Shown: piece by piece, positions 5,275 through 25,529 of the stretch
Numbering within the stretch: the first letter of the stretch is position 1
Layout of the letters: each line of letters starts with the position of its first letter
Notes under the pieces: model-generated
The model's input: the letters and a program-made list of their open reading frames with translations, nothing else
Database searches by the model: none
What the model was told of the DNA's origin: nothing
Made by a program: the position numbers and the translations under genes
DNA from: Haplodiscus bocki
Lineage: Eukaryota
Direction: 5' to 3'
DNA length: 64,000 nucleotides
Assembly (NCBI GenBank): GCA_965655095.1
Contig: OZ296652.1
Coordinates: forward strand, 112,158,001-112,222,000

Positions 5275-5649
5275 CTGAAATTGCCGAACTCATTCATTAA
5301 TTAAACGACTGTACCGAAAATCAAGGGTGTCTCTTAACTGCCACTTGTCATCGAAAGTCATCGAGAGTCAGGTCACATTTAATTTGTCTACAGCACCATA
5401 CACAGAAGCGGCCAAACACGGCAACCCGATGACATAGTTCAGTAAACAATGTAGCTGTCGTAGCAAGTTTACAATTGCTTAGTTTGCAATTTTGAAGTTT
5501 TACAATTAACTAATAAGATGTCCGGAAAAAGGACCTGACATATCACTATAAAACCGAATGCCTTCGACTTGGATATAATTAAAAACTGAGCGTCAAATCG
5601 AAACAATTACGAAAAATGATAGAAGTAAAAATGGCAGTTTTGAGGGAAG

Positions 5650-5833
5650 CTAGTGAATACCATTATTTCACACGAGAGTAGTGTATCATCCTGCCGTATT
5701 TGCATACAGGGTAAGGACTAGATGAACTCTGTCAACAGGTAATCCTAAAATTCAAAAAATATTTACCTCACCCAGAGTCGAACCCCAAAAATGATGCACG
5801 GAAACTGCCCTACTAACCACTGCGTCATCTGCC
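5650..5833 (-). mobile_element. tRNA-derived SINE-like element
   Basis: The minus strand reads GGCAGATGACGCAGTGGTTAG (Pol III A box) ... GGGGTTCGACTC (B box) at tRNA-like spacing, but no intact cloverleaf is evident. The 3' boundary is approximate. Confidence 0.55.
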
Positions 5834-6200
5834 TTTGAGCTCATGTTGATGAAACTTTAAAATATAGAGAAAAAGGCTCTTGAGTAAAATTCAACTCATT
5901 CTAAAATTCAAAATTTTGACAGCAATTCAAAATTTCAACCGCGCCTAGATTCGATCAGTGAAATGATGCACGGAAAACTGACCATAAAATTCGACTTGTA
6001 CGTCATAAAATTCAGTTAGTCAGCTACAAGATTAGAAGCAGAGGCACACAGACCGCCCGCAATGAAAGATTTCAGCTAAAATTTTGATTGCTAAATTCTG
6101 TCATGAGGTGCAATTTTAGTCATTGCGATTATGGAGTGAAACTGTTTCACGTTTTGACGGCATCATTTATCCCAAGACAATCCTCCTTTCAATGCTATTA

Positions 6201-6635
6201 TGACATGCCCGTCAGATATTATTAATAATAACACCCCGTCCCCTTCTCAGCGCCGTTCTTTTGTTAAAACTTAACTATGATTCAAGTACTCTCGAGTGCC
6301 CTTGTCAAATAAAGCTTGCTTTCCCAAAACACATAATCCTGTTATCACTGCTGTTTAATATACAAAACATTCTTTCCACCCTTTCTTCCTACGTACAATA
6401 ATATCTCTCTATAACACTTTAGTGTGCATTTTACACACACTCAACATTTCTGGAACACTTTTGTCTACTGTATGCAACATTTATATGCAAACGTAATAGT
6501 TTCCCTGCTGTATTACTTAAAGTTTAATATTGTTACTGAAGTCAAAACTGGCCCGACCCTTGCCCTTACAGTCATTAGACCCTCGACAATTTCATAAAGA
6601 AGTTCTAGAAGAAATTCCAATCAGATCAACCCGAA
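6201..6635 (+). repeat. 5' LTR, left half (interrupted by LINE)
   Basis: Colinear with 22962-23395; starts TGACATGCCCGTCAGA; 4 mismatches to the 3' LTR in the first 60 bp. Confidence 0.93.
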
Positions 6636-6870
6636 TATATGTATAATTTCTTTAACCCCAATTTGCGGGAGGATAATTTATTTTTATTTTATTCATTTAT
6701 AAGTATGAACAGTTTGAAAACATTTGAACTATGTGGATACCACAGTTCACACAGCGCCGCATAAAGTTGGAAGCCTAATTGTTGTGATCAATTTATTAAA
6801 TAGATCTTTTCAGGGATTTGATGCGGGGGTGGCAGTTGACACTCCAGATCGTTGATTCCTATAATTACTT

Positions 6871-6924
6871 CTCGGTATTGCCATAGTACTATCGGTATTG
6901 CCGTAGTACTGTCGGTATTGGCGT
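6871..6924 (+). repeat. 20-bp tandem repeat (~2.7 copies) in the LINE 5' UTR
   Basis: TCGGTATTGCC(A/G)TAGTACT-type units start at 6872, 6892 and 6912. Confidence 0.85.
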
Positions 6925-7063
6925 AAAAACCTGGAGAAGTTTCCAATACACTACTACAATATTCTCAACCTTCAAGACACAAAGTACAACAACAGGCCAC
7001 CTGCTTAGGTTCCAAAAACGTTTTGTATTGATATAAATCGGTTGCAAACATTATTTCTACAAT

Positions 7064-7820
7064 ATGGTCAAAAAAGGCAAAAAAAAGTTCAACAAAAACC
7101 TGTCTATGCTCTACATACTCTGCTGAAATATCAGACAATTCCAATTCCATATGTTGCGATTCGTGTAATAACTGGCATCATGGGTCTTGCGTGAACTTAT
7201 CTGCTGAAAATATTTCTTTCCTTGGGAGTAGTAATAACCTTTTTTGGAAATGCAACAGTTATTTTTCCATTAAGGTTACGCCACTTAAAACACTGGAAGC
7301 GAAAATTGACTCCGTCCTATTCAAACTAGAAGAACCCAGAACTGAAATACAACCAGCTCAACCCTCAAAACCTATAGAAGTATTACAAAACAATAAGTAT
7401 GATCATCACTATAGAGTTCGTATTTCCGGAATTAGTGAAAGCAAAAAAAATCATTTATTGATAGACAATTTGCTGATAAAGAAAAAGTGGAAGAAGTATT
7501 CAAAAAACTAAATGTCAATTGTCCAATTGTCGAAACAAACAGACGTGGTAAATTCATTGAAGATCGCCGAAGAAAACTAATAGCTACTTTCTCATCACCA
7601 TGGGATGCGCGTTTAGTAATATCTAGTGCAATTCAGAAAAAAATTATTTGAAACCGATAAAATTCTTATTACAACGGATTTATCACCATCAGATCTTGCA
7701 ATAGAAAGAAAACTATTATCAAAGCGCCATGAACTGATATCCAATGGTGTGCCAAAAGGAACTCTGAAAATACGCTACTTGAAACTTTATCAAGGCAATA
7801 AAGAAGTAAACGTCGACTGA
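7064..7820 (+). pseudogene. LINE ORF1 (PHD finger + RRM-like region), frameshifted
   Basis: Translates to ...SICCDSCNNWHHGSCVNLSAENISFLGSSNNLFWKCNS (PHD), then VRISGISE and ILITTDLSPSDLAIERKL, as in CR1-type ORF1. Confidence 0.8.
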
Positions 7821-7928
7821 CTAAATAAAGAAGCAAAATGTCTTTCAATCAGTTGTCAGAGCCTTCTCTCACTTAATCGTCGCTTATCGTTACTATCAAA
7901 AGTAGTTTTAATATCCGCCGACATTCTT

Positions 7929-10543
7929 TTGTGCACCAAAACTTGGCTCGATGAAAATTTTACACAAGTTATTTTTACTGACGACAATTATTCAATTATA
8001 AATCGTTCGGACAGATATACTGGTTCACACGGCGGTGTATTGGTTCTGTCTAGGAAATGTTTAAAAGTGCGCAAAGTATATCTAAATGCCGATTTTATGT
8101 GCTCAGTTATTTATAACAATGTACCTATTTTTACCATATACAATCCACCCTTTACCAGTGATTTTCGCATCAAAGATATTATTCTGACAGAGAATATCGA
8201 TAAAACTATTTCCAAAGCCAAATGTGACAACGTTATTATTTGTGGTGATTTTAACATGCCAAAAATCGATTGGAACAGCATGACTGAAAGCACAACTTCA
8301 GAGTATCCTTATTCCTCGAAATGTTAAATAAAAACGGCTATGAACAACTTATTACTTCACCCACCCATCAATCTGGAAATATTCTCGGCTGTGTGTTTAT
8401 AAATTATGGGTCAACGCCCTTTACCATAGATGAAAATTCATTTTCCGATCACTATTTTGTTGAGTTCGACATTCCGAGAACACACTCTTCATGTGACTCT
8501 ACATCTCAGCCTATACTATCCCTTAAACCAGATTACCCAATAATAAATCAGTGTATCGGATCTAATTTATTCCCATTTTTTATATCTGATACGACTGCCT
8601 ATTATTTCCACTGGATTGGAGAATTAACCTCCATTAATCAACCCTTCTTCAAACGTAAGCGGCAAAGAAGAACCCAATTTCCTAGATTTTACAGTTCGCA
8701 CACTATTCAAATGCTCAACAAGCTGCATACTACACACAGAAGAATCAATCGACAACCAAAGTATATTCCCACACCATCAGTTCAAATATCAACCACCAAT
8801 GTACAAGAATCTATTGCTCTTGATACCCATATATTCATTGAAAAATTTGTAGACGCGAATCTCAACGTTAATGATTGCTATAAACTGATCAATTCTTTCC
8901 AACGTAGCAATAAATTACCAGCTTGTATGACTCTAAACGAGGAAATCCTAACTGATGATCTTAATAAAACGAATGGTTTCAACAAACATTTTTGCAGTGT
9001 TTTTAAGAGAGATAGTCTACCATTTTCTGATTTCTCTGAAAATACCCTAAACAATATTGAATTCACAATTCAAGACGTCGATAAGGCTCTACGACAAACA
9101 AAACGTGGTTCTAGTACAGATGCTATTAATGGTGATTTCATCTTACACACTTCTAATGCACTGGGTATCCATTACCATAATTTATTAAAGAACTTGTTAA
9201 AACACTCATATTGGCCAAATGAATGGAAGCAAGCTATAATAACACCCCTTCATAAATCTGGTAATATCGAATCGATATTTAATTATAGACCAATTTCTTG
9301 TTTATCAAAATTATCATTAGTATTTGAGCACTTACTGTTCAATAAGTTATATGACATCTTCTCCCCCCAACTATCCGGCTCCCAATTTGGTTTTATGAGA
9401 CGCAAATCCACGGTGCTACGACTAATAATTTATTTCCAGCCTATCTACAATAACGTTGACACAAATACAGATTGTTATGCACTTTATCTCGATTTCTCAA
9501 AAGCATTTGATAGCGTATCTCACGCGACGCTACTCGAAAAAATACGCCTTTTTGGTATTGGAGGATCTTTGCTAAGGTTGCTATCGAGCTACCTAACAAA
9601 TCGCGTTCAATGCGTTAAACTCAACAATATCATATCAGCGTCATTACCAGTCACCAGTGGTGTGCCTCAGGGATCAGTTTTGGGTCCACTCCTATTTTTG
9701 GTTTTTATCAACGACCTGCCAACCCGACTATCGCACTCAAAAACATTCCTGTATGCCGATGATCTTAAGCTTATTCATAACAACCTTCTAGAAATGCAAA
9801 ATGATATATTAGCACTTTCTCAGTGGTCACAGGTAAACAAATTATCATTCAATGCCAAAAAGACACAGCTCATTTCATTCGATTTTCGGTCTCAAGACTG
9901 CATCACAGATATTCCAGATCTTATCCTGGATGACCATGAAATATTTCTTCAAAAAAGCGTGGGTGATCTCGGTCTATCTTTTTCAAGCAACTTAGCTTGG
10001 TCTAAACACATATCTGATCGTCTAAAAGCATGTTACATTAGAATTATATTCTTAAGAAGATGTCTACCGCTGCATTTACATAGCCAAATCAAGACTAAAT
10101 TGTATAAGACCTATATTTCGCCAAAATTACTTTACGGGTCACAAGTTTGGTCCCCGAATCGGAAAGACATATCTAAATTAGAACAGTTCCAGAAAAACGT
10201 CTCAAAGTGGATATGCAAGGGTGCTACATACAAGAGTAGATTAATCTCGTCCGGTTTACTTCCTATGAATCTTCTCCTGAAAATAAACGATCTGCTAGTT
10301 CTCAACCGAATCCTAAATGGCACATATGATTTTGATTTTCATAACTTTTTATCGATCACTTACCCCTGTGACAGTTTTTACTACAACACTAGATCTACCC
10401 TGAAGCCCGTTCTCAAGGTTAAATCAACTCGTAAAAAACAGGCCGACAATCACTTTTTCCAGCGAATTGTTCCCCTGTCAAACTGGTTGATGAAGGAGCA
10501 CAATGTCGACTTTTTCGTTGAGCCTAACATCTTCAAACCTTGA
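7929..10543 (+). pseudogene. LINE ORF2: APE endonuclease + reverse transcriptase, frameshift near 8320
   Basis: IICGDFNMPKIDW, SDH, NYRPIS, YLDFSKAFDSV, GVPQGSVLGPLLFLVFINDL, LYADD. Confidence 0.93.
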
Positions 10544-10649
10544 GTGAAACAGTTGTTCAAACGCTTATTTGCATCAGATGAATAAGTTTTATATATTTTA
10601 GTTTGTCATATTGTTCAATTTTTAGTCCTTACGAATAGTAATAAAGTCT

Positions 10650-10673
10650 TACATACATACATACATACATACA
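10650..10673 (+). repeat. (TACA)6 microsatellite tail of the CR1/L2-like LINE
   Basis: Read directly; follows AATAAA at 10640-10645. Confidence 0.9.
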
Positions 10674-10682
10674 CAATTCTAT

Positions 10683-13600
10683 TCAGTCCAGTTTTTTGAG
10701 CTTAGTATGAGTGTAGTCAGTTTTATACAATCGTCTTGAATTTTTAACGTTCAGGTTTGCACAGTTATTTGGTCTGTTAGCAGATTGCAATTTGCAGTTT
10801 AAAAAGAAATGAAATGGTGTTTCTTCCGATTCACCACATTCACACATCGGTGAAGCACCGAGACTCAATTTCCACTTCATGTCAGCTAGTTTTAGGGAAT
10901 TGCCAATCAGGAACTCGCAGATTTTTTTTTAGCTCTGTATGAGTTGCCGCATATCATCGGAGAGATATCGTTAAATGCTGTGACACTTGCAGTGAGGTTC
11001 GCGAGAAAGAAGTTGTTAAACCCTCTTTTCCATCGTTTGCGCCATTGGTCAGTGATAAAACCCGCAATTTGGTCATTAGTATACTCGAGAATGGTTTCCT
11101 TGTTCATAAATCGACTGTATCTCTTCAAACTTGATTCTAGTGAGTTAGCTCGGCTGCGAGATTTACTAATGGATTTTAAGTGAGTATCCCGTACGAGATC
11201 ATCAATCTGCCTGATTTTGATGGCGAACTTGACAGTTATGCTTTCGCAGTAAATGTCAATCGGTGGTACTCCAGTCAATGCTTCACACGCTTCAATAGAG
11301 GGAGGTGGACCATGTTTGAAAATTTTTCTCATAACATTATTCTGAAGGCATCTGAGTTGGTGGGTATTTTTGTGGTACCAAAGCGGTGCACCATACAGGG
11401 CTTGCGGCACAATAACTGTTCGATAGAGATAAACTTGGGTCGTGAGAGATAGACACCATCTATTTGTGCATTTAATGGTAATGGCAGCCCAATTACGCTG
11501 GGCTTTCGCTACACTCAGCTCAGTATGCTCTTTAAAAATAGTTTTATTCTCAATGATTATCCCTAGAAACTTTGTGGATGTTTTAACTTTACAAATGTCA
11601 GAATTTAGCGCGATTTCGAATGGATCTCAGTTTTGGAACCATTATCAGCCATGCGCCATTTGTCGCACCACCGTTTAATATTATCCGCAGCGGCCTGCGT
11701 TCGGCTTGCAAGTTGTAGAATATCATCGGCAGTTAAAATCAGAGCTGTGTCATCCGCAAACTTGAATCGAATGGGGTATTCATCGATGAAATCAAAATTG
11801 AACAAAATGAACAATGTTGGCGAGAGTACACTGCCTTGCGGTAAGCCGATGTGAATCGGAAAATTATTTGAATGATAGTTTCCGATCTTTATGAAGGATA
11901 ATCTGTTGCTACGAAAAGCCTGGATAATACTGAGCAAGTTTCATGTTATTCTGATGTTCTGAAATTTGTACAAGAGGCCGTCTATCCAAACACTATCGAA
12001 AGCTTTCTCCAGTTCTCTATTCAGCAAAAACCGCTGGTTTTTTATTTATCTGAAAATCTTCCAACTCTAATTGCATTCTGTACAAAGACCGAACGGTGCT
12101 TCTCTTTTCTCTGAAACGTTCTTGTTCTTCTTCGAATATTTTACAAGACGTAAAGAAAGTGCGCAATCTTCGGTTTATCATTCTTTCGAATAATTTTCCA
12201 ACATGACTGGATAAAGTTATTCGTCTGTAGCTGGAACTGAATGCATAATTTGATTTGCCTGGTTTCTTTATGAAGATTACTCGAGATGAGTTCCAGGACT
12301 CGTGCCAACAACTATTGAAAAGTTTCAGTAGCCTCAGTTTCATTCTAAAACCGAAATGTTTCAGCATGGATGCATGAATCCCATCATTATCGAACGCGTC
12401 CGACTGAGGAAAATCTTTGATAGCACATTCTAGTTCATACATCGAGAAGTCCTCGTGGAAGAGTTGTTCATGCTCAGCGTTGATCTGCGGGTCCTGATTA
12501 CGAACCCTCCGTGTCACCTCAACGTAATGATCCTCATCGAATGATCTTCCCTTGAGATGCTGCCCTGGGAAAAATGTTTTTCTCAGTTCCTCAGAGATCT
12601 CTTCTTTCGAAGTAGCCAGTCCTCCATCTGAACTTTGCAATGGGCCTATTGCGAATTCTCTCATTTGGAATACATGCCGAAATTTTCGCCAAAAATCTTT
12701 GCCTTTCCTGTAACTCAATCCAGTTAAAGTTTCTCGCATCCACTCCGGAGATTTCTCAGATAAAAGGCTCTTAAACTCATTTTTCGCATTATTAAGTCTT
12801 TCTCCATTTGAGTTGCTGAAGCAGTACTTGAATTTTTTCGGAGAGCTCTGAGTTCCGCACTTTTTTGAGATGGATCTTCAAACCAGAAAGGTTTGCTATG
12901 CCTGGAGCTTCTTTTATAAGGAATGGCCAATCGTGTTGCTTCGGTAATGTCGACAAGTACACTTCCCCATTGATCTGTGGCGCTTGGGCATTGAACTGCC
13001 TCAAGTGATGCATGCGATGAATTTTCTAACACGTTCTGCCAGGCTTCCCAGTCTGCTTTTTGCAACCACGGTTTGGTATTTCCTTCTTCCGTCGTCCTAC
13101 TTATGTTGCATTTCACTATTAAAGGTATATGTCCACGTTGCGGCGCTCCTGTGAAGAGTTCAACATTTGGGTCAGTTGTTAGCTCGAATCCTACTTGCGT
13201 AGCGATTCGTCCACTTACAATGCATAGATCTATAACACTCGAACCATTGGATGACAAAAAAGTTTTTTCTCCATTATTAAGGATAATGTCTTCAGCAGAA
13301 AGACTTTCCACAAGGAGATAACCGTTAGGATTGCATATACTATCACCCCACAGGCAGTGTCTAGCATTGCAGTCTCCCAAGAACAACACTCCATCAAGGT
13401 TGTGCTGATGGTAGAAGTTTACCACTTTTTCTCTCTGTTTTATAAATTTTTCCATCGAAGCGGTTTCATTTGGTTTCAAGTATGCTGTACCGATTATGAT
13501 CTGGAGCCCCGCCGCCACCGTCAAGATCCAAATGCTGTCATGCTCTTTCAGTTCAAGTTCATTTAAACGAGTGTAACTCATGTCCTTATTTATTATGATA

Positions 13601-13761
13601 GCGACGCAATCACTTCTCACGCCACGACATGTTGATTCCGTGAAGTAATTTGCAGCGACGTCCTTATCTAGTTGTCTATTTGTTTCGTTGAGGCAACAGA
13701 TTGTCGGTTTATGTTTTTCAAGGTAGTTGTTAAAAGTCAGCTTGCTATGCTCGGCAAAACC
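10683..13761 (-). pseudogene. LINE ORF2 (APE endonuclease, RT, C-terminal CCHC), fragmented
   Basis: CCLNET, GDCNARH..WG, SVIDL (endonuclease); SYRRITLSSHVGKLFERM, GLPQGSVLSPTLF, FADD (RT); CECGESEETPFHFFLNC (CCHC). No RNase H seen. Confidence 0.9.
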
Positions 13762-14208
13762 ATCAACCCGAAAGCAACTCAACCAGAAGACCAGTTGCCG
13801 AAGAAAACAATCTCTCCTCTGCAACTCAACAAGAGACTCTTCAAACGTCCCCAGAAACAATTCTGAAGCTATGTAAGTTTTGTAAAACAAAAATCCAGTT
13901 TAAAAGTGTTTTGTCTTTTCCTTTCTCCGCTTTCTCAGTAATATAAATTCTTTCCTAAAAAACCAAATACAATTTTCATTCACTTGAGATATCCCGCTAG
14001 CAACCACCAAATCAAAAACACCTAAATGGTAATTTTAGAAATTACTGACCTCCTTTCTAAATAACAGTCGTCCTCCGCATCCAAAATTTTTTTCTAGCAA
14101 AGTGTTTTGAGAAGCATAAGACTGTTACACTATGTAACGATGCAAATCGTGCCTCCGAATCCAGGAGAATCAGAAAGAGTATGCGAACGAACATAAAAAC
14201 CTATGTCA
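13762..14208 (+). repeat. 5' LTR, right half
   Basis: Colinear with 23385-23824; ends CCTATGTCA. Confidence 0.93.
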
Positions 14209-14536
14209 AATCCCAATCGCTTTTCGGCCCGAGTCCTCTTTTTCACCACATGATTCCAGTATTCATTATGGGCTTGAAGGAATTTATTACCACCAACACA
14301 GTGAGTCGCACCCACTGGTTCAATTTTTTCCAAACACGAACTACCCAAACCACATTAAGTCTACAAGTACTTTCTTTTTCCGAACTCTAGCTCAAATCTG
14401 GAGAAATTTTATTGAATTCTTGTCGCACTATTTCACTGCAATCCTGTACGCAGGTAGTGGTCCCGCTCAACTTGACGATCTCAGACGCTAAAAATTCGAC
14501 GTAGTTTGATTTTTCTTTGAGTTTTTTTTGTATACA

Positions 14537-15760
14537 ATGTCGACAACCGCCGCTACGTCAACGACCACCACCGCCACCTTTACAAACGCAGGAGGAGCCA
14601 CTCCTAGCACACCTACCTCCTCCACTGCCACCACCAGTGCAACAAGTACACCAGTTTCGTCGAGCGCAACTAGCTCAACGCCTACTGCAAACCAAAGCAA
14701 TGGTGCTGTTGCACCTGCCTCGCCGTTTGCGACACCTTTTGGCCCCGGAGGTGCCCCTTTCCTAACTCCTTTGCCATCATGCCTTATGTCAGAAAATTTC
14801 ACTGGTTCTGGTGACTTTGAGGTATATCTACAGAACTTTAACACTGCCGCGTTTCTTTCTGGTTGGTTTTCCCCAGCCCATGACAACAGACCACATTATT
14901 TCGCTCTTCGGCTGCGCCGAAATGCCCTGCATTTCTACACAACGCTTTCGGCAGCCCAACAAACTGACTTCAATTTATTAGTTGATGCCTTCCGGCAGAA
15001 CTATTCAACGAATGTGGACATACTGAAAGCAAGACTGAAAACTGCGCGGCAGCAACCCAATCAAGTCATTTCTTCCTTCTTGTGCGACATTCGCACACCT
15101 GCGCGACTCGCCTATTGCGCCTTTCCTCACTTAGTGGAGCAAATTGTCCCGACTAGTTTCATCGAAGGCCTGAGCGATGATGCAACGCTTCCATGGGAAC
15201 TTAAAAAGTCCAAACCAGCTACAGTTGATGATGTTCTAGCCCTGGCCATGGAATTATATTCTTTCCTGGAAATTGAGCAAGGAGCCCCATCAACAAGCAA
15301 AATGCCCAAGACCAGCGTAAACGCGATCTCCTGTGAAACTCCTGCGCCACCCGCCAAAAAATGGATGGACGAATTTGTTCCAACGCTAACGGAGGGATTC
15401 AAGAACGCCATGCCTAAGCCGAGCCAAGAAGTCTCCTGACAGCAAAATAGTAGGCCAAATCGCAACCAACCTTCTCGGTTGAACTGCACTGACACCCAGG
15501 GAACCCGCACCGTTCGGTTCCAGAATAGTTCGAATGGAGGACGAAAAACTAACAACCCGGACAAAAACTGGTGCGGATCCAACCGCCAAAATACGAACTC
15601 TAACCCGCCGAATGACAACAAAAATAGCTCCGAAGGACCCTGGAAAATTTGTAAACATGACAATCATGCCTTGAACGATTGTAAAGCTTGTTTCAAGTGT
15701 GGAAAGAGTGGAGACTTCGGCAATGAATGCAGAAGCAAAACGTCCAACAATTTAAACTAA
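14537..15760 (+). pseudogene. gag: gag (Ser/Thr-rich N-terminus, capsid-like core, degenerate zinc knuckles)
   Basis: ENFTGSGDFEVYLQNF, LKARLKTARQQPNQ, SFIEGL. Stop at 15437-15439. Degenerate knuckles ICKHDNHALNDC and CFKCGKSGDFGNEC. Confidence 0.85.
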
Positions 15761-18700
15761 AAGCGTCTACGCCAGAGGGTCAACGCGCAGACAAAGACAC
15801 TTCACCAGGCCCACAAGTTCAAACATTGAATTCCGTTGTTGATCACCGGAGTGTGTTCATTCAAATAAAAAACTTTGATCGCATAATTGAAGCGATATGC
15901 GACAATGGAGCAAGTGTGCCATGCCTCAGTACTGAAATCTATGACTCCCTCAAAACGAAACACTCCTTGAAAATGGAGACCTCAAGAACGCAACTAAAAG
16001 CCGCAAATGAATTGCCCATAGAGAAGCGAGGCATCGTACGCCTCCCGGTAAAACTGTGTGGAATAAATGTTGAACATAAAATTCACGTTTTGGCTAAGTC
16101 AGAGGCCCACTGCCTGATAGGCCTTGATTTTTGGAAGATCACCAATATGATCCACTTTTTTCGAAGAAGAAATTGCGAGTGAATGATGACACTTTTGTCC
16201 CATTGTACCACAAACATTATACCATACAAACTGATCAGGTCTTCCGAGTTGTTTCCACTGACTATGTTTGAATCCCAACAGGTCATTCGATGATCATACC
16301 GGCCCACATCCCAGGATGGAAGCGCCCACTAATAAAGTTGGCCGCCGTATTCGAGCCGCAAGAACGGTTCAAGGTAGACAAAGAGGTCAGTGCTGACCAT
16401 GTCTTGTTCAATTTCGCCGAGCAAACATTAGTCGCAATGGATAAAATTCAGAACATTAGTACACTCAAAAGCCTCAAAAGTCCGAAACTAACCAACAAAA
16501 AGGATGCCAAATACGATTTGAAATTTGTCAAAAAATCTATCGATACTGGTTTTTCCCTGGAAGCAAAAGCAAAGTTCTCTGAACTAATCAGTGACTTCTC
16601 TGATGTGTTCTCGAAAAACGAAAGGGATATCGATCAATGCGATGTCACCGCCCACAAAATACAAACTCAACCAGGTTTGCGACCAGTAAAACTCCCTAAC
16701 AGAAGGATGCATCTCCACTACAAACAAGTCTTACAAGAAAAAGTTGATGCTTTCTTGGAAAAGAAACTTATCACGCCTTGTCATAGCCCGTACAGTGCAC
16801 CAGCCATGCTCGTCCCGAGGAAAAACCGCGAACTCCGCTTAGTAATTAACTACCGTCAATTGAATAAACAAACCATCAAATCCTGTTGGCCTATTTCTTA
16901 TATTGAAAAAATATTGATACTCCTGAGGGAAGTGAGTACTTTACCACGATCGATATGTCGTGGCGTTTCTATCAGCTGCCAACGGAAGAAGGGAGCCAAG
17001 ACATCACTGCGTTTAGTACGCCCTCGGGTACCTTCAAATGGCTCCGCATGCCCATGGAACTGACTGGTAGTCCGAACACCTTCCAGAGTCTTATGAAGCA
17101 AGTCCTTGTTGGCCTGACTTGGAAGACAACCGTCCCTTATTTAGATGATTGTATCATCTTCTCTTCTACAGCGGACGAACATATCTAGAGACTAAGAGAA
17201 GTCCTTGAAAGGTTTGGTCCTGCGAACCTGAAAAAAAAACCGACAAAGTGTGAGTTTTTCCGAACTCGCGTCCCCTTCCTTGGCCATATCATCAGCAAGA
17301 ATGTTCTAGAGGCGGACCCCGACAAGATTGTTGCCGTTAAAAAGTTTCCGATTCCAACAACCCCAACTGAAGTAAAATCATTCCATGGATTGTGCTCCTA
17401 TTATCGCCGATACGTAAAAAACTTTGCTGAAATAGCCCGACCTCTCCATAAGGCAGGTGAATTAACTACAACTTTCAATTGGACACCGGAAGCCCAAGGC
17501 GTTTTTGAAACTCTGAAGTCTCGACTAACAACTACGCCCATTTTGGCCTTTCCTATGATGAAGTAAACTTCCATCCTGCACACCAACGCCAGCCTAACGA
17601 CTATGGGTGCTGTCTTGCTGCAAGTACAAGATGGAGAGGAACATGTCCTCTGCTACGCCTCCAAAGCTTTCTCGAATGGCCAGACTAGATATTCCGCGAC
17701 GAAAAGAGAATTGTTAGCTGTCGTTAATTTTACACGACAGTTCAGACATTATCTGATTGGTCAAAAATTCACAAAAATCACTAATCACCGTGCCCTCCAA
17801 GGGCTCCACAACTTCAGAGACCCGGATGCACTAACCACCCGTTGGCTCGAGAAACTCGCTACTTTCAACTATGAGGTAGTGCATAGGCCCGGAAAATTGA
17901 TCAGCCCTACCAATGGTCTCTCCCGAACACCTCTTAGAGCATTTAATGCAACTGTAACTGAGGACCCAGCTGCACATGCGCCTGAAGTAGACCAGGAAAA
18001 CACCCAATCGTACCTAGGAAAGTCCACGAGACCCCAAACATTTCCATTAATCGGAAATCCAAGGCGACGTACTGCAATCAATTGACTCCATTACTCACTG
18101 TATTTCAGCTGATTTCAAGCTAGGAGCAGGAATCGCTCGAAGAATTAAGCGACGCTTTCCAATGCAGTACCCGGACAAAGAAGCCATTGCTAGCGAAGGC
18201 ATTTGGCCGCAACGGATCCCGAATCGCAACGTTTTGTGTACCACTTAGAAACAAAAGCGCGGTATTTCCACAAGCCTACTTATAAAGCCTTGAGGGCATC
18301 TTTAGAGGCAATGCAAAGGCATACCGAGAGCAACAATGTCCAGCGCATCAGCTTGCCCCAAATAGGCTGTGGCATCGACAAGTTGGACTGCAAAAAGTCC
18401 GGAAGTTGTTCCACGAAGTTTTCCAGCCTACGAGTATAGATCTTACTGTGTTTTTCAAACCCCATTCAGGAACGCTGACTTCAAGTCAAATCCCAATGGA
18501 TTCCCTTATTGATACCGATAAGGCCAAAGCCCTCGATCTTTCAGACAACATACCTTCACTGGCGTCTGCTCAGAGAAACGATCCAGCACTCAAGCACTTA
18601 CTTCCTTGGATCACACGTGGTAGGCCGCCGAGCTCACAAGAATTACAGGGACTATCCCAAACAACAAGGAAATTGGCACACGAATTCCGAAGTTTAAAGG

Positions 18701-18900
18701 TCGTTAATGAAAATCTTTGTCGAGAATTAATCCACAAAGGAGGTTCATTGCACCATCAACAACACATGCCTGCGTCGTTAGTACCCCAAATTCTGAAGTC
18801 GATCCACTCATCGCCCACAAGACTCAAGCCCAACCTCAACGCAACCTTCGCAACAGCACCACACAGCAACGTAATGCTCAATCGTTGTGAAATGCAATAA
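15761..18900 (+). pseudogene. pol: pol: aspartic protease, RT, RNase H, macrodomain, N-terminal integrase remnant
   Basis: AICDNGASV (protease); SPYSAP, INYRQLN, RMPMELTGSPNTFQ, PYLDD (RT); RYSATKRELLAVV (RNase H); ILKSIHSSPT (start of the integrase Zn region). Many frameshifts and stops. Confidence 0.92.
18033..18460 (+). pseudogene. TARG1/OARD1 (Poa1p-like) macrodomain inside pol
   Basis: Across two frameshifts it reads EIQGDVLQSIDSITHCISADFKLGAGIARRIKRRF...RFVYHLETKARYFHKPTYKALRASLEAMQRH...ISLPQIGCGIDKLD...FHEVFQPTSIDLTVF. This matches the OARD1 motifs HCIS.D..MGAGIA, LITK...KPTY..L..SLEAM and PRIGCGLD. Confidence 0.9.
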
Positions 18901-19019
18901 TTCCACCTGACCTAAGTCAATTCAATTCCCCCGCCAGCTCGAAGAAGAAAAAGAAAAGTTCGCCAAACTTATAAATTTTACTCTTTTCTGAACGCTAATT
19001 TAACAACTTTTACCCTTCA

Positions 19020-21350
19020 AATCCTTCTTTTAGGCTCCCCTTCCTACTTTCACTTGTCCTTCTCAATAGCCCGCCCTCTTGTTACTTTGTGATCTACTAC
19101 TCAACTCATCTAAATGATCAACCAGAAGTCCCAGTTTTCAAGAAAGGTGCTGCCTTTCTCTTTAAATACCAAGCAGTCTTTTCCGAAAGTGAGAGCAAAG
19201 TTCGAGGGTTCTCCCCGTACCCAAAAAGCCCAGATGCCAATCTTACTGGAGCTGAAGAGTTGTGGAACATAGCGACAATACGAAAAACCGGAATTGGTGG
19301 CATATATGTCCAAAAATTTTATGAATTCCCACAAATCAACGAAACATATGGCTTATTAACGACACAGTTGAAGGATCGCGTAGAATTGATCAAGCTGGAA
19401 GTGAAACAATCAAAGGATGAGCAAGACAAACTTGCAGACGTAATGAAGTCTTTTCTTCCGAAACAGTATCAGAAGGACGTGGCGACGCTTCCAATTTCGA
19501 AACGATTTATTGGCGCCATGGCTGCTCTTGGAGCAGGTGCCGGGTTGATCCTTGGCGACCCGTTCAAAGAAACTGCATGTACAGCTGTCTTCACTTTTAA
19601 CTAGTGCGATGACACAAGCAGTTTGTCCAGTTTGTCCCAGGTTGTGGACCAGATCCTGAAAACGCAGGAAGAAACATTAGCGACCTTGCAACGTGTCAAG
19701 TCGGCCAATGATTCAAACTTCTTCCCACTGGGAAACGAAGTCCGAGCAACGTTACAAAACGTTAAGAACCTTCGTGATGCTGTGAATGATTACCTACAGG
19801 CTCTGCAAGATCGAATAAAAGGAATCCAAGGAGATTTGATACAACATAAAGAAAGTCAACGAAGAAAAGCGCAACAATCCCACTTCCTCCAAGAGATTAG
19901 ATATGTCATCTCCCAATTGGGTACTCTTTACACTCACATAAAATCTTACCAAGCTGCGTTCTACGCTTACAAGATTAACTTGTTCTCAATAATCTCGTCC
20001 CTTGCTAGTGGCCAAAAACCCTCCCAGTTCCTTTTACCCCAGGAAATTGCCGACATTGTACGCACCCTGTCTGAAGAAGAGAGTTACCGTGGTACGAAAC
20101 TCACCCCTGCTGTACAGCCTGGTTTCGTAGCTGCTTTTTACGAAAATCAACTCGTGTTGGAGGTCACGTTAATTCTGCATGGTATTTCAGTTGTCCTTGG
20201 TGTTCCTATGAACTCTAAGTCCTCTACTTTTAACGTGTACCACGCTACCCCGCTTTATCCTTCTAATGGCGATAACAAAACAGCCTCCTTGTTTCAGCTC
20301 TCAAAACCGTTTTTGACTGTGGCTGAAGACGACTCCAGATACCCTGAGTTGGACAGCTTGGCGCTACAGCAATGCTTGGCGAACAACCGTATTCGCCTCT
20401 GTCGCAAAGGGTTCTCGACGACCACTGATGATACCCTCCTATGCCTGAGCTCTTTAATGTTCAATTACTCTATCCTGCTATTGCACAACTGCCCCGCCGT
20501 TTCTGTCCTCTTACCAGATGCCCCACAAGCCTTTTACTTAGCCGAAGGATTATACCACGTTATATAGCGAGAACCGCTTCTTCACCTAAAAAATGCTAGT
20601 GATTTACATGGTGTCAGTGTTCCAACCATTTCTCGTCAAGCCTGCATTTTGAGACCCAGCTGTCACAGAACCCTAACCCTGAATAAAGGAGACTTAGTCC
20701 TTAAACCGGACATGGACTACTGCTCGACCAGTCCAGAGCCCTTCTTTGCAACTATCAGGCTAGTCCCTTCCCTAGCGAAAATTTTCCAGCGTGTACCTCC
20801 TTCTAATCAAGTCTTCCACGTCTATTCGTTGGGTGAAGCCCGCCATTCAATCCTCAGTAGCGTCCGCATGGAGCTAGCAGAGCTTCCGGATGTACAGAGA
20901 ATGTCAGTTGAATCAATTGATTGACTAGAAGCACCTATCGCCCAGTATTATTTGTCAATTTTTCCGGCCTCATCACAAGCGCTTGAGTCATACCTCCCTT
21001 TTTGCACAGCTGTTTTGTTCTCGACTGTCTCAATTGCACTCTCATTGTTGACTTTCACCAAAAGTTTTACCCTGTTCCGGCGTCAATGGAAACGACTTTT
21101 CCTCCACCCGCACCAATACTTCAAGAGCTCCAAAGGAAGACTCTTGCACGTTATGGATGATGAAAACATGTTTGCAGCCTCTGACGGTACCACCGCCTTC
21201 CTTCAGCTTAGTCTGGAGGAATTTACTGCCATAAAGGCCCTTGCTAATGAAACCTTGAATCAACCACCCCATTCAACTAAAGTACACACTGCCTGTAATA
21301 ACCCTCAGGTCCCCAGTCGTGTCTATCCAGACATCACAGCCCCTCATTAA
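19020..21350 (+). pseudogene. env: env-like class I fusion glycoprotein, three in-frame premature stops
   Basis: ORFs 19089, 19623, 20649 and 20952 share one frame. Hydrophobic signal-like stretch (LPFLLSLVLL), basic cleavage site plus fusion peptide ISKR|FIGAMAALGAGAGLILG, heptad repeat, Cys-rich region, TM segment (AVLFSTVSIALSLLTF) followed by RRQWKR. Confidence 0.85.
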
Positions 21351-21788
21351 GCCGAGTCTACAACGTAATCTAACTAAACCCTTGAACATTTCTTTACTAT
21401 AACATGTCTTACATATCATATTTAAAATCTGAACACCTTGCACTTCTGTGCCCCTTTTGTACGTTTCCGTTTTCATCTGGCTTTGAGTCATATCCTGGCC
21501 ACCCTCTTGCACGTTTCAGTGCCCGTTTTCTTGTGCGTTTCTGTACCTGCCCAGCTTTTGTTGGCCCTGTCTGCACGCGTCTGTGCCCCTTTCTGTTCAG
21601 ATTTCGTTCTGACTCGTGGAATGAACAGAGAGACATGGTCTCCTCTGTCAGTTGAACTTAACGTTTCACAGTATACGTCTCCGTATACAGGCACCTTGCT
21701 TGATATGTGCAATAAAAAAAACAAACAATGAGAAAAACGACTCGATGCATTTTTCATTTTTTCCAGCCCTTCTCCCTTTTTTTCTCTT

Positions 21789-22880
21789 TTGTGTTTTAAT
21801 GTATTTAGCGTGCTTTGTTTCAGGTTTCCCTCCAAGCGTGCCTCGGGATCGCCTCTCTACACCTGCAGCGGAAAAGTTGCCCTCATATCTCCTGGAGATG
21901 TCATCCACATCTTAGACGAATGGGAGTACAAAGTGCTCCTACTGAACGCCCACTCATGTAGAGTGGTTCTAAAACGCGTGGATCAGGCTTCTAACGGATC
22001 TTATTCGTCGTCCTGTCACCAGCGCAGCTTCATCTGCCCCTCCACAGCCATAAGCTTGATGCCCCCAATCTTACACGATGCCTCGGTGACAGCAGACGAG
22101 TTGACTCAAAATTGCATGTGCGAACTAACCCCACCCCCCATACTACCAGAAGTCGATGACATTGCAACACAGTGCACTTTTACGGATACCTGCTCAGTCT
22201 CCACTCAATGCTACTTTGAGGCAGACGAATACACCGGTTTTAAATGCCAAAAATTCGACACTGTAGATCGTCTAATACAAGGTTTTGAAGAAGCAGAAAC
22301 ATATGCCAATGCCGCTTTCGCTGAGCACTGCTCCCAAGTCAACGAGGTTAATCAACAGAAAGAAAAGATCGCAAACTTACAACAGCGCATCACCGCCCTT
22401 ACAACAGAGAATGAAGCTCTACTTAAACGGACCCTCGAACTAACAGAGGATGTATCCTCCCTAGGATCGATAACAGCAAACAGCCGTCAAGTGCCCGTCA
22501 GGCAAAGAATGGTGTGGTTCAACTTCCTCAAACTGCCTCTTCTGCAAATGCCTTTAGACATATATCCTGAAGACGTGCCTCCCGAATACTTCTTCGATCT
22601 TCTGAATTGTTCCCCTTCTTAGACCCCTGAAGTAAAACAAGAAAACATCCGCTGTCTTTTAGAACTTTTACATCCAGATAAAAATCCTTCCGTCTCTCCT
22701 CTTGCTAGCCAATTCGTTCCAATCATATCCTATTTAAAAACAATTCTACCAGACCCTGCTCTTGTGCCCGTATACAAATGTTGCGACTTCTTTGCCGTTG
22801 TCCGACGCCAAAGAGGATCCAGATCCTGCAAAAAATGCGACCCGTTTTTACAATCACTTGATGATCTAATGGATCTTTAA
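21789..22880 (+). pseudogene. ORF4: coiled-coil protein with C-terminal DnaJ J-domain; one internal TAG at 22620
   Basis: Reading through the TAG gives YFFDLLNCSPS*TPEVKQENIRCLLELLHPDKNPSVSPLASQFVPIISYLKTILPDPALVPVY, which aligns to the J-domain pattern YY..LGV...A...EIK..YR.L....HPDKNP.....F..I..AY..LSDP..R..Y. Ends at TAA 22878-22880. Confidence 0.75.
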
Positions 22881-22961
22881 AATTGTTTTATATTTTTTTA
22901 TATCGTAACAATTGTTGTTTTTTTATTTGCGAGGCGCAAATCCTCTAAACGGCAAGTAATA

Positions 22962-23824
22962 TGACATGCCCGTCAGATTTTATTAACAACAACACCCCGT
23001 TCCCTTCTCAGCGCCGTTCTTTTGTTAAAATTTAATTATGATTCAAGTACCCTCGAGTGCCTTGTCAAATGAAACTTGCTTTCACAAAACACATAATCCT
23101 GTTATCATTGCTGTTTAATATACAAGGTATTCTTTCTACCCTTTCTTCTTACGTACAATAATCTCTCTCTAAAACACTTTAGTGTGCATTTTACACATAC
23201 TCAACTTTTGTGAAACACTTTTGTCTATTGTATGCAACATTTATATGCAGTCGTAAATTTTCCCCTGCTGTTTTACTCAAAGTTTAACATTGTTGCTGAG
23301 GTCAAAACTGACCCGACCCTTGCCCCTGCACTCATTAGACCCTCGACAATTTCATAAAGATTTTTTAAAAAAAATTCCAATCAGATCAACACGAAAGCAA
23401 CTCAGTAAGAAGACCAGTTGCCGAAGAAAACAATCTCTCCTCCGCAACTCAACAAGAGACCCTTCAACCGTCCCCAGAAGCAATTCTGAAGCTATGTAAG
23501 TTTTGTAAACCAAAATTTTAGTTTGAAAGTGTTTTCTTTTTTCTTTTCTCTTCTTTCTTAGTGATTTAAATTCTTTCCTAAAAAACCAAATACATTCACT
23601 TGAGATATTCCGCTTGCAACCGCCAAATCAAAAACACCTAAATGGTAATTTTAGAATTTATTGATTTCTTTTTTAAATAACAGTCGTCGTCCGCATCCAA
23701 AATTACTTTCTAGCGAAATGTTTTGAAAAGCATTTGACTGTTACACTATGTAACGATGCAAATCGTGCCTCCGAATCCAGAGGAATCAGAAAGAGTATGC
23801 GAACGAACATGAAAGCCTATGTCA
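22962..23824 (+). repeat. 3' LTR (863 bp, uninterrupted)
   Basis: TGACA...TGTCA inverted termini; colinear with both halves of the 5' LTR. Confidence 0.95.
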
Positions 23825-24267
23825 ATGGTGCTGTGAAATATGCTGATGTCAAGTTCGCTCGGACGACTCCAGGAAAGGTGAGAAAGTTTGCCTGGTTTTT
23901 ACATATTACGTGATTTTGTTTTATTAATCGAGAATCACCTCTGGTGAAGTGATCCCAGCGTTCTTGTACGAGTCTCTTGAGCCGACGGTGGAAGCTAAAC
24001 CAAATCGATCAACTTTCGGTAATAATATTTTGCCTCGCTTTGTTTGATCTGTCTGGCACTGCTTGTCACTCTATCCGAGCTTTGAAGCTCTCAACGGTCA
24101 AAACTAGTGGTAAATTTTACTTTCACGCTGCATATTGTGCTAGAAATGTTTTTAAAAAGTGAAGTAGCAGAATACAGTTACATCAAATCCTGCCTACGGG
24201 ACCTCATGGAGGAGGAACGAGAGATGTTGGCATTATTTCAGCAAACCCTGCCAACAATTATCGCCTG

Positions 24268-24625
24268 TTAAGTCGTTTTGGTTACCGATAAGCATCCATA
24301 TAAGGAAAGATTGATGGAAAACACTTAGCATAGGCACTTGTATAGTGATTTTTAGGTTGATTTGGTTGCCGACAGGCAAGTATATAGTGAAAAAGTGGAA
24401 AAACACTACCATAGGCTCACGTATATCCACTCTTAGGTTGTTTTGGTTGCCAATAGGCATTTTTAAACTGGAAGTTAGATGAAGAACCTTTAGAGTGGGC
24501 TCGTGTGCATTGACTTTCAGGTTATTTTGACCGACCATGGGCTCGTATAAAGCGATATATTCGGGGAAAATTCTTAGTATCGGCTCATGTATGTTGACTC
24601 TTAGGTTGCTGTTGTTTACAGAAGG
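24268..24625. repeat. Degenerate 81-84-bp tandem repeat, ~4.5 copies
   Basis: TTAGGTTGTTTTGGTTGCC-like core recurs near 24270, 24352, 24433, 24517 and 24601. It shows up as repeated PIGNQNNLRV in the minus-strand ORF. Confidence 0.7.
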
Positions 24626-25529
24626 CTTTCAAACACCGAAAAATTGACAAGATGTACTCAAAAAAAGTTTACGATTCCAAAATCGTCAGTTGTTAGTCTC
24701 ATTGACAATCTCCGAGCCAATGCTTATGCTCGATAGTTTCACAAAACATTTTTCAGCACGTAAAGCAAATCAATACATTTATCAACAAGCACTTGGAAGC
24801 TTTTCAAGTGTCTAAGCATTGAGTTGGTTTCAATAGAAAGAACTTGTTTATTGTCAGAGACGACCAATCTTTTTGTTTTCTTGGGTTTTTTCGTTTCCTT
24901 GTAACTGTTCAAGGCTTCGATGTCATTGTATTTTCCCATGTCGGATAAAACGTTTCACTCATCTTCTGTATACATGGCAATCACTTGAATGTCACTTGAC
25001 TCTTCGCTTCTTCGCAATCTTGGGCATGACTTCCAATGATTTCAATTCCAATTATTAGGCTCTTCAACTGTTGTTCTGAAGTCGTTAAAGTCTCCCGGGT
25101 TCAAGATCAAATATTGAAATTCGCCTTTGAGACTTGTGTATTAGGTTTTGACTCACATCGGAAAGACTGCTTTCCGTAGTTGGCTCTGCTGAGTCTTAAT
25201 CTTCTAAGAAAGGTTCCTTGTTGGCGACGGTTCAACAGCTGATTGATCAAAGTTCATTAGGTTATCCATCAAATCATCTTCAGAAAAAATCTCTTTAATG
25301 TATATCGGGACCAGGCGGAGTACAAATCAAGAGACGATCAAGTTTTGAATTGAGCACTGGGATTGAGGACATTTTCTCCAAAGAGCATCAGATGGGGAAC
25401 GTGGGCGATTTGAAGGCACCCAGTTTTGATTTTGAAACTCAGGACACGTAGGACTAGGTTGAGTCAGCTCTCCTTCAGTTTCCCATTCGTCGTCTTCCAA
25501 TATCTCTCTATCAACGCCGATGTCCCTGA

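Follow-up and report, generated by a model that had tools for sequence, protein, structure and literature searches.

An envelope-bearing Ty3/gypsy family of Haplodiscus bocki with a TARG1-type macrodomain in Pol and a putative J-domain gene

The 64,000-nucleotide stretch of Haplodiscus bocki DNA analyzed here (the window) contains an env-bearing element of the Ty3/gypsy type that belongs to a large, recently active group. Its members almost certainly share the plan LTR-PBS(tRNA-Leu-like)-gag-pol[PR-RT-RH-macro-IN]-env-ORF4-PPT-LTR, and the whole clade keeps two accessory-type modules, a macrodomain and ORF4, under selection next to the envelope. With env, macrodomain and ORF4, this accessory kit is closer to that of a complex virus than to an ordinary transposon. 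Complex vertebrate retroviruses are marked by accessory genes with which they fight or hijack the host, and such genes are seldom seen in Metaviridae.

The window copy itself (region 14537..22880) is a dead copy, a fossil with stops and frameshifts throughout. As the original prediction from the DNA letters had it, gag, pol, macrodomain, env and ORF4 all lie where they had been placed, with the corrections included in the following list.

6195..6198, no strand: target-site duplication, left copy, 4 bp (same 4 bases at 14130-14133 and 23746-23749)
6199..6635, plus strand: 5' LTR, left part (89.7% identity with the 3' LTR across 437 bp)
6636..13761, no strand: nested LINE block within the 5' LTR, foreign to the element, 7.1 kb
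7032-10543, plus strand: CR1-like LINE with PHD, endonuclease and RT (Pfam PHD, Exo_endo_phos, RVT_1)
about 10907-13761, minus strand: second LINE of the nested block
13762..14129, plus strand: 5' LTR, right part (87.8% identity with the 3' LTR across 368 bp)
14130..14209, plus strand: duplicate of the 3' flank, replacing the PBS and most of the leader (95% identity with 23746-23825)
14537..15760, plus strand: gag, with one in-frame stop (15437-15439) and a C-terminal zinc knuckle (zf-CCHC_5, E=0.014, weak)
15745..18050, plus strand: pol, with protease, reverse transcriptase and RNase H; frameshifts and stops, several frames
18051..18466 (ends approximate), plus strand: macrodomain of TARG1/OARD1 type within pol, frameshifted here
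18467..18971, plus strand: remains of integrase (N-terminal stub, C-terminal tail) around a core deletion at 18819/18822
19034..21350, plus strand: env, F-type class I fusion protein; predicted splice acceptor with last intron base 19033
21824..22880, plus strand: ORF4; predicted acceptor with last intron base 21823; a single stop codon, 22620-22622
22590..22790 (ends approximate), plus strand: J-domain of ORF4, HPD at 22671-22679
22960..23745, plus strand: 3' LTR, 786 bp, with a decayed polypurine tract just before it
23746..23749, no strand: target-site duplication, right copy, 4 bp

The predicted LTR pair was recovered, but its 5' member is split by the LINE block, which is flanked by an 11-bp duplication (6625-6635 and 13762-13772). 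The LTR length, originally put at 863 bp, had to be reduced to 786 bp because the larger figure counted ~80 bp of flank. In the window, the 5' LTR ends on the same terminal base as the LTRs of relatives; directly after it, the 4 bp of the target duplication are repeated along with 80 bp of 3' flank, a rearrangement of this copy. No PBS motif was found at 14130..14209, and one is present in the 5' stretches of 12 of 14 relatives. Pfam recognized RVT_1 (E=3e-13) and RT_RNaseH (E=6e-27) in the window pol; the deletion at 18819/18822 has taken out the integrase core as part of about 500 lost Pol residues, and H2C2, rve and p58_C domains were detected in other copies. The window env carries three internal stops (at 19602, 20565 and 20922), the ORF4 stop precedes the HPD motif, and Rfam gave no match within the window.

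The assignment to Gypsy was borne out by the relatives, which have the pol order PR-RT-RH-IN and in which LTRs, PBS, PPT and target-site duplication are all present. The macrodomain and the J module are kept across family copies and are not one-off captures. Macrodomain, env and ORF4 occur in the same order in 10 of 10 copies chosen by their LTR pair, so the arrangement in the window is not due to chance; the same plan was found in 10 further copies chosen by ORF4, and four distant lineages, with ORF4 identities of 27-39%, retain all modules. A quick tree, from which P0224, P0230 and P0235 were left out as short, united 29 rows in one clade (SH-aLRT 100); its neighbors, in a tree built without GyDB or ICTV references, were Pol proteins of Gypsy type, among them ones from sponge and fish. 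Among the copies chosen by ORF4, eight of ten have LTR pairs that are 98.3-100% identical, and 4-bp target duplications are present, demonstrating recent transposition of the family at the level of sequence. The proposed dN/dS comparison among copies, using pairs that share copies, gave values of 0.12-0.49 for macrodomain, env and ORF4 (0.15-0.22 for ORF4), well below 1 and indicative of purifying selection on all three. The reading that macrodomain and ORF4 ride along neutrally, or resemble the known domains by chance in a single decayed copy, would agree with the window Pfam scores for Macro (E=0.001, on a single fragment) and DnaJ (E=0.079), both under the cut-off, but this reading is refuted, and its probability negligible, given modules that are spread across the clade, open in young copies and under such constraint.

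The macrodomain lies inside Pol, between RNase H and integrase. In an unbroken relative, it matched TARG1/OARD1 across the whole domain with E=4e-29, compared to 5e-5 for the next macro type. The positions aligned with K84 and D125 of human TARG1/OARD1/C6orf130 (PDB 2L8R, 4J5Q), which we take to be the catalytic positions of TARG1, are each kept in 20 of 21 clade proteins and in 24/24 and 22/24 loci, respectively. The human protein is a free host enzyme, whereas the version in the element is a Pol domain; it is probably catalytic and would remove ADP-ribose. The known RNA-virus macrodomains are MacroD-type. The original analogy with them is, therefore, loose, since the domain found here is TARG1-class and part of Pol. 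In other Gypsy Pol proteins (P0235, P0236 and P0240), a macrodomain of this type is C-terminal, the position that chromodomains occupy. This location would suit a domain that merely reads ADP-ribose and anchors integration at PARylated chromatin, like a chromodomain; coupled with a pseudo-J domain that serves as scaffold or decoy and has lost Hsp70 activation, such a reading appears quite improbable to us, and for the macrodomain it is opposed by the conservation of both catalytic positions. A TARG1 domain fixed in Pol here and placed differently in other Gypsy Pol proteins would point to ADP-ribosylation as a real barrier to invertebrate retrotransposition.

By its sequence features, env is an F-type class I fusion protein. 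Of 36 aligned relatives, 4 gave a match to Baculo_F (best E=3.4e-8) and one to Fusion_gly; the first member itself matched neither Pfam family. A strict furin regular expression matched only 5/36, and alignment columns were used in its place: R136 is invariant and R139 occurs in at least 90% of the 36 sequences, with the site decayed in the window copy. An AlphaFold model (pLDDT 46) contains a heptad helix at 182-303. A hydrophobic 19-mer forms the putative membrane anchor in 35/36 and is followed by a tail of 100-135 residues. Foldseek searches of PDB and BFVD with this poor model returned no fold match at E<=0.001.

Both env and ORF4 start at predicted phase-2 splice acceptors. The expected splice signals are present and their acceptors conserved, the env phase-2 acceptor in 17 of 21 rows and that of ORF4 at an unchanged base position in 18/20 loci. 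In lineage B, a matching leader donor ends in AT (3/3 copies), and the junction would create ATG; in lineage A, with the leader read in part, the matching donor would yield ACG rather than ATG (4/4). No GT-AG joint was found in four contig sets of unknown type, which covered the stretch evenly, a result that weighs neither for nor against expression. It is likely that env and ORF4 are made by splicing: one leader donor would serve two subgenomic mRNAs, for env and for ORF4, and the junction would supply the start codon. In Drosophila gypsy, the env start codon is created by splicing. This Errantivirus expresses Env, a relative of baculovirus F, from a spliced subgenomic mRNA, according to the available part of PMC4276936; it has three ORFs only and lacks both a macrodomain and a J-domain gene.

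ORF4 has no signal peptide and no membrane anchor. A beta-rich N-terminus is followed by a Pro/Cys linker, a coiled coil, a four-helix HPD J-domain of ~63 residues and a Cys-rich tail, the HPD lying between helices II and III. With Pfam DnaJ, eight of nine relatives scored E=1e-6 to 1e-3 and only 2/9 passed the cut-off, and an ORF4 profile scored E=0.002-0.05 against PDB J-domains, aligning across the whole J-domain of DNAJB8, DNAJC5, DNAJC10 and DNAJC12. The HPD is present in the window and in 7/7 unbroken copies checked; among 150 relatives examined, 46 of the 67 that cover the motif, decayed ones included, have it, and its conservation is about 87% per residue versus a background of 60%. 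In the 15 helix II residues before the HPD, we counted 1-2 K/R in the window and five other copies (6/8) and 3-4 K/R in the remaining 2/8, which represent two distant lineages. The prediction of an ORF ending in an HPD J-domain was correct for the domain and its motif, but helix II is without the usual basic residues in most lineages. This weakly basic helix is what a pseudo-J scaffold would lead one to expect. HPD conservation far above background argues against it, as does the DNAJC12-like P0387, which also has 2 basic residues in the same helix II stretch; DNAJC12 activates Hsc70 when client-bound, as given in the accessible portion of PMC11926245. Even with a helix II that is weakly basic in most lineages, we consider it reasonably likely that ORF4 acts through Hsp70.

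Among 129 profile hits, a DNAJC12 homologue was the sole cellular J-protein identified. DNAJC12 as donor of the J-domain is a lead only, as the presence of P0387 in the alignment makes one comparison circular; no clear host DNAJC12 was found in the genome, where the best match was 41% identical (introns may hide one). The AlphaFold models of env and ORF4 were poor (pLDDT 46-47). Foldseek gave no match at E<=0.001 in PDB and BFVD for ORF4 either, and VIA gave coiled coils only (Z<=7.2); the ESM Atlas gave no match of at least 0.9 for either ORF4 or its N-terminus.

Small nucleic-acid binders of SH3-like type, Cren7 for one, appeared as weak Foldseek rows for ORF4 (E about 0.3), which would fit a Rev/CERV-like regulator that is spliced early, binds its own unspliced RNA, oligomerizes by the coiled coil and has Hsc70 remodel the RNP for nuclear export. 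ORF4 occupies the fully spliced 3' position, and two strong acceptors would create a need for an export route for unspliced RNA; Caenorhabditis elegans Cer1 has such a factor in CERV, an accessory protein made by splicing that contains a leucine zipper and a Cys finger (PMC10309623, available sections). Like ORF4, CERV is an extra protein from a spliced LTR-retrotransposon mRNA with a coiled coil and a Cys-rich part but, in the same sections, it shares exons with gag and has a G-like domain and no J-domain. We saw no homology between the two, the Atlas result for the N-terminus lends no help and the allelic pattern described below is awkward for binding to a fixed RNA element, leaving this an unlikely, though serious, alternative.

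In lineage A, RT, IN and env are 96-98% identical between copies, whereas ORF4 falls to 66%. Three N-terminal and three C-terminal ORF4 alleles occur in mixed combinations, the halves having been exchanged among near-identical backbones. We counted this divergence and mixing in favor of a host target; plain template switching can explain the swapping without conflict. Deeper in the phylogeny, the ORF4 tree agrees with those of IN, macrodomain and env. This agreement, and the presence of ORF4 alongside gag-pol-env in every lineage sampled, would also be expected if ORF4 recruited Hsc70 for proteins that the element itself encodes, to assemble or uncoat Gag, activate reverse transcriptase or handle the long cytoplasmic tail of Env. 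Env-less lineages that keep ORF4, suggested by L043 and L044, were rejected: the absence of env marks individual deletions rather than whole lineages, which leaves room for a role linked to Env. Among the matches listed for these two loci, only 3/41 and 2/40 span the IN-ORF4 junction; where both pieces of a copy were listed, an additional 2.1-2.5 kb lies between IN and ORF4, and env makes up one of these stretches (48% identical). We nevertheless rate a client among the element's own proteins as improbable, as ORF4 is unfused to Gag or Pol, cannot fold the Env ectodomain in the ER because it lacks a signal peptide, and far outpaces the proposed clients in divergence and swapping.

Our best overall explanation, held with slightly less than even confidence, combines the shared plan, splicing, a Pol-borne eraser and ORF4 as an Hsc70-recruiting, client-specific J-protein. 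The macrodomain would be made with Pol, carried in the particle or pre-integration complex and strip ADP-ribose, placed by host PARPs, from element proteins or from cDNA or RNA ends. ORF4 would act as a class C J-protein whose N-terminus and coiled coil hold the client while the HPD loop brings Hsc70 to remodel it. By the logic of polyomavirus T antigen, the favored client would be a host restriction or silencing factor; that it belongs to host defense is possible, if somewhat doubtful. More tentative still is the fullest form of this scenario, in which complex invertebrate endogenous retroviruses, still transposing, would aim their own Hsp70 co-chaperone at a host defense factor as T antigen does, a Pol-borne TARG1 would erase PARP marks from the incoming cDNA complex and ORF4 allele swaps would record an arms race. 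Knowing the ORF4 client would tell which host factor or step in replication holds these elements back.

The original prediction took the combination of macrodomain, J-domain and envelope to be unfamiliar among described Metaviridae. We did not find it in print, but two of its parts are known. F-type env in invertebrate Gypsy elements has been published for the 'ancient errantiviruses' (Chary and Hayashi, PMC13524379), which, in the text available, share the gag-pol-env order, an env of F type that has a furin site, a fusion peptide and a membrane anchor, multiple copies, recent activity and the occurrence of a tRNA-Leu PBS. Their RNase H-integrase bridge is described there as mini or pseudo-RNase H domains, not a macrodomain; the main text available contains no macro domain, DnaJ, J-domain or ADP-ribose, seven supplements contain no macro domain or DnaJ, and the text describes no fourth ORF. 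Macro domain ORFs are carried by teleost epsilon-like ERVs (Basta et al. 2009, as cited in PMC4977317). These likewise are reverse-transcribing elements with a macrodomain but, compared by description in the part available, belong to Retroviridae, carry it occasionally and come with no mention of a J-domain gene. The published literature, with GyDB and Repbase outside the search, yielded no retroelement J-domain gene. If ORF4 is a true J-protein, retroelements would join the viruses that steer Hsp70 with a co-chaperone of their own, a first for a retroelement as far as the literature search reaches. The SV40 T J-domain is used to disrupt Rb-E2F, according to a title cited in PMC10410713. In polyomavirus T antigen and DNAJC12-type class C J-proteins, as in ORF4, the J-domain is linked to client-binding parts; T antigen belongs to a DNA virus, whereas ORF4 is a retroelement protein with its J-domain C-terminal.

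The original prediction placed gag, pol, a macrodomain, env and a fourth open reading frame (ORF4) in one Ty3/gypsy element, and this set is present on the + strand of the window, C5:112158001-112222000 of a 1.5-Gb assembly, in the order gag, protease, reverse transcriptase (RT), RNase H, macrodomain, env and ORF4. The window copy itself is dead. Its pol carries several frameshifts and stops and lacks ~500 residues, the integrase (IN) core among them; env is interrupted by three stops, and a single stop in ORF4 lies upstream of the HPD motif. Two LINEs, 7.1 kb in all and accompanied by an 11-bp duplication, split the 5′ LTR; compared with the 3′ LTR, its halves are 89.7% and 87.8% identical. 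The predicted LTR length of 863 bp was an overestimate because the 3′ flank is repeated after the 5′ LTR: 80 bp of flank, together with the target duplication of 4 bp, occur again at the expected position of the primer-binding site (PBS) and leader, which fits a local duplication followed by LTR–LTR recombination. Features of the window are as follows.

22960-23745, 3′ LTR
82-2121, − strand, uninterrupted 679-codon frame for a peptidase of family M3 (Pfam E=2e-106)
4264-5289, − strand, 341-codon frame with C2H2 zinc-finger matches (Pfam)

The LINE block nested in the 5′ LTR (6636-13761) comprises a PHD-bearing CR1-like element (+) and a 5′-truncated LINE (−).

In a search of the source genome with the family LTR, 40 of 359 candidates yielded at least 74 matches, and many of the matches listed form pairs spaced 10–12 kb. 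Ten copies picked by LTR pair (85–98% LTR identity) all contain the macrodomain, env and ORF4 with a J-like end, and all are decayed. As the choice was made by LTR, this set tests the architecture without bias and rules out one-off capture of the two modules. Ten further copies, picked by ORF4, likewise all carry macrodomain and env. LTR pairs were located in eight of these (98.3–100% identical), which also show 4-bp duplications, a polypurine tract and a tRNA-Leu-like PBS; in four of the ten, pol, env and ORF4 are unbroken in the stretch read, gag lying outside it. The architecture is real, selected and clade-wide. Three lineage B copies (L024, L026 and L038) have LTRs that start and end with TA...TA, not TG...CA, yet represent the youngest burst, and a family LTR at G000:C10:81324678-81326453 in the source assembly contains a short, tandemly amplified internal unit.

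A profile searched against 1.84 billion representatives returned 129 matches, with members as low as 20–30% identity. Own-genome searches with four ORF4 types gave at least 122, 129, 111 and 137 matches, not de-duplicated. Two of the types lack a close match there, the best reaching 42% and 58%; the clade is therefore probably present in at least one further genome. Four distant lineages (ORF4 27–39% identical), represented by one copy each, all contain macrodomain and ORF4, and two contain env; the other two, considered as env-less lineages, proved to be single env deletions. Copy L001, which bears a large env deletion, has an inverted env fragment at 5516-5770. In a quick RT–RNase H tree of 59 rows, from which three short rows had been dropped, all 29 clade rows (nine loci and 20 macrodomain-bearing proteins) formed one group with SH-aLRT 100. 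The IN, macrodomain, env and ORF4 trees agree on lineages A and B, and some of the deeper forks are tentative.

An unbroken macrodomain copy matched human TARG1/OARD1 with E=4e-29, the next macro type reaching 5e-5. By residue count along the alignment, a lysine and an aspartate align with K84 and D125, the catalytic pair of TARG1. Of 21 clade proteins with full coverage, 20 have the lysine and 20 the aspartate; the lysine is present at all 24 loci compared and the aspartate at 22, the two loci without it being decayed. The dN/dS estimates proposed originally for macrodomain and ORF4 could be obtained: by the Nei–Gojobori method, five within-lineage pairs that have copies in common gave 0.13–0.27 for the macrodomain versus 0.06–0.18 for RT, and two unsaturated within-lineage pairs gave 0.15 and 0.18 for ORF4 (J part 0.15 and 0.22). 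Being part of Pol, the macrodomain would sit where cDNA ends, integrase and host PARPs meet. TARG1-type macrodomains also occur at the Pol C-terminus of other Gypsy proteins, namely P0235 (JGI), P0236 (Nucella lapillus, with SCAN) and P0240. In the RT–RNase H tree, P0236 and P0240 are long-branched and lie outside the clade, suggesting repeated capture. Macro domains are described as occasional in fish ERVs (PMC4977317, citing Basta 2009); a retroelement macrodomain by itself is therefore not new.

We found 124 env relatives, with 40–97% identity among the 120 listed. Among 36 aligned members, Baculo_F was matched by four (best 3.4e-8) and torovirus spike by four, the first member matching no domain. 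The alignment keeps an R-x-x-R site followed by a Gly/Ala-rich fusion peptide, after which the predicted model has a 120-residue helix; 35 of 36 members carry a C-terminal hydrophobic stretch. Fold searches with this model returned nothing informative. The dN/dS of env is 0.12–0.49 (Nei–Gojobori, pairs having copies in common). Env is best read as a class I, F-type fusion protein. In one copy of a distant lineage (L054:2-2701), pol tail and env share one open frame; in copies L023 and L041 they are in the same frame with one stop between.

In Drosophila gypsy, the env start codon is created by the splice. Its env is described as made from spliced mRNA (PMC4276936). Here, ORF4 conservation starts at a pyrimidine tract and CAG, the exact position being shared by 18 of 20 loci of lineages A and B, by the window and by two distant lineages. 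For env, 24 loci were entered and three had no match; of the 21 rows obtained, 17 have a phase-2 acceptor directly ahead of a signal-like hydrophobic stretch. The base after the ORF4 and env acceptors is mostly G. Because the lineage B leader donor exon ends in AT (3/3 copies), splicing from it would make an ATG for either gene. The matching lineage A donor ends in AC (4/4), which would give ACG in the part of the leader read. Lineage A leaders L045 and L048-L050 have predicted near-cognate starts, ACG or, from a second donor, CTG, not ATG.

ORF4 (~340 residues) comprises a beta-rich N-terminus, Pro/Cys linker, long coiled coil, J-domain and a tail with conserved Y-x-x-C-G...C-x-x-C. Pfam DnaJ matched eight of nine relatives (E=1e-6 to 1e-3; above cut-off in two of nine), the family profile aligned across the whole of solved J-domains, and among weak Foldseek matches J-domains ranked first. 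HPD is intact in the window and 7/7 unbroken copies, and 46 of the 67 relatives covering the motif have it too (150 examined, many decayed); conservation is ~87% per residue versus 60% for the region. Counting against J function, six of the eight copies carry only one or two basic residues in helix II. The sole cellular J-protein identified among the 129 profile matches, a DNAJC12 homologue, is similarly poor in them, and DNAJC12 is described as activating Hsc70 only with client (PMC11926245); by this analogy, ORF4 is plausibly a client-gated J-protein.

The element reads as an env-bearing Ty3/gypsy variant in which the J-domain gene appears to be the new part, env and macrodomain having precedents; F-type env Ty3/gypsy elements are described as widespread among animals (PMC13524379). 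The text and seven supplements of that errantivirus survey, figures aside, lack the domain terms 'macro' and 'DnaJ'. The accessible parts of PMC6338049 and PMC2774666 name no macro domain, DnaJ having been sought in PMC6338049 alone, and the main text of a J-protein survey (~280,000 proteins) lacks 'retro' and 'transpos'. In the open literature covered, the papers listed for macrodomain with gypsy were unrelated, those listed for TARG1 with retrotransposons were reviews, and no report combining macrodomain, LTR retrotransposon and envelope was found. Among the papers listed for J-domains in LTR retrotransposons, none was found that describes such a gene in a retroelement, and one, on a mite genome, mentions a DnaJ domain. 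A GyDB or Repbase entry is possible.

Lineage A copies share 96–98% identity in RT, IN and env, whereas in ORF4 identity falls to 66%, with synonymous sites saturated; the N-terminal and C-terminal parts of ORF4 have three alleles each, found in mixed combinations. As a client-specific J-protein, ORF4 would direct Hsc70 at a restriction or silencing factor of the host, a role we favour because alleles differing by one third of residues share one backbone. Serious rivals for the same gene are a role in assembly and an RNA export function like that of Cer1 CERV (PMC10309623).

Beyond the element, an AT-rich unit of 2.2 kb is repeated in tandem across window positions 34400-64000, in 14 copies that are for the most part 85–99% alike, one of them cut to 1.5 kb; the array has no ORF of at least 150 aa and no Rfam match, and 24259-24634 is a degenerate direct repeat with ~165-bp spacing and 67% likeness.
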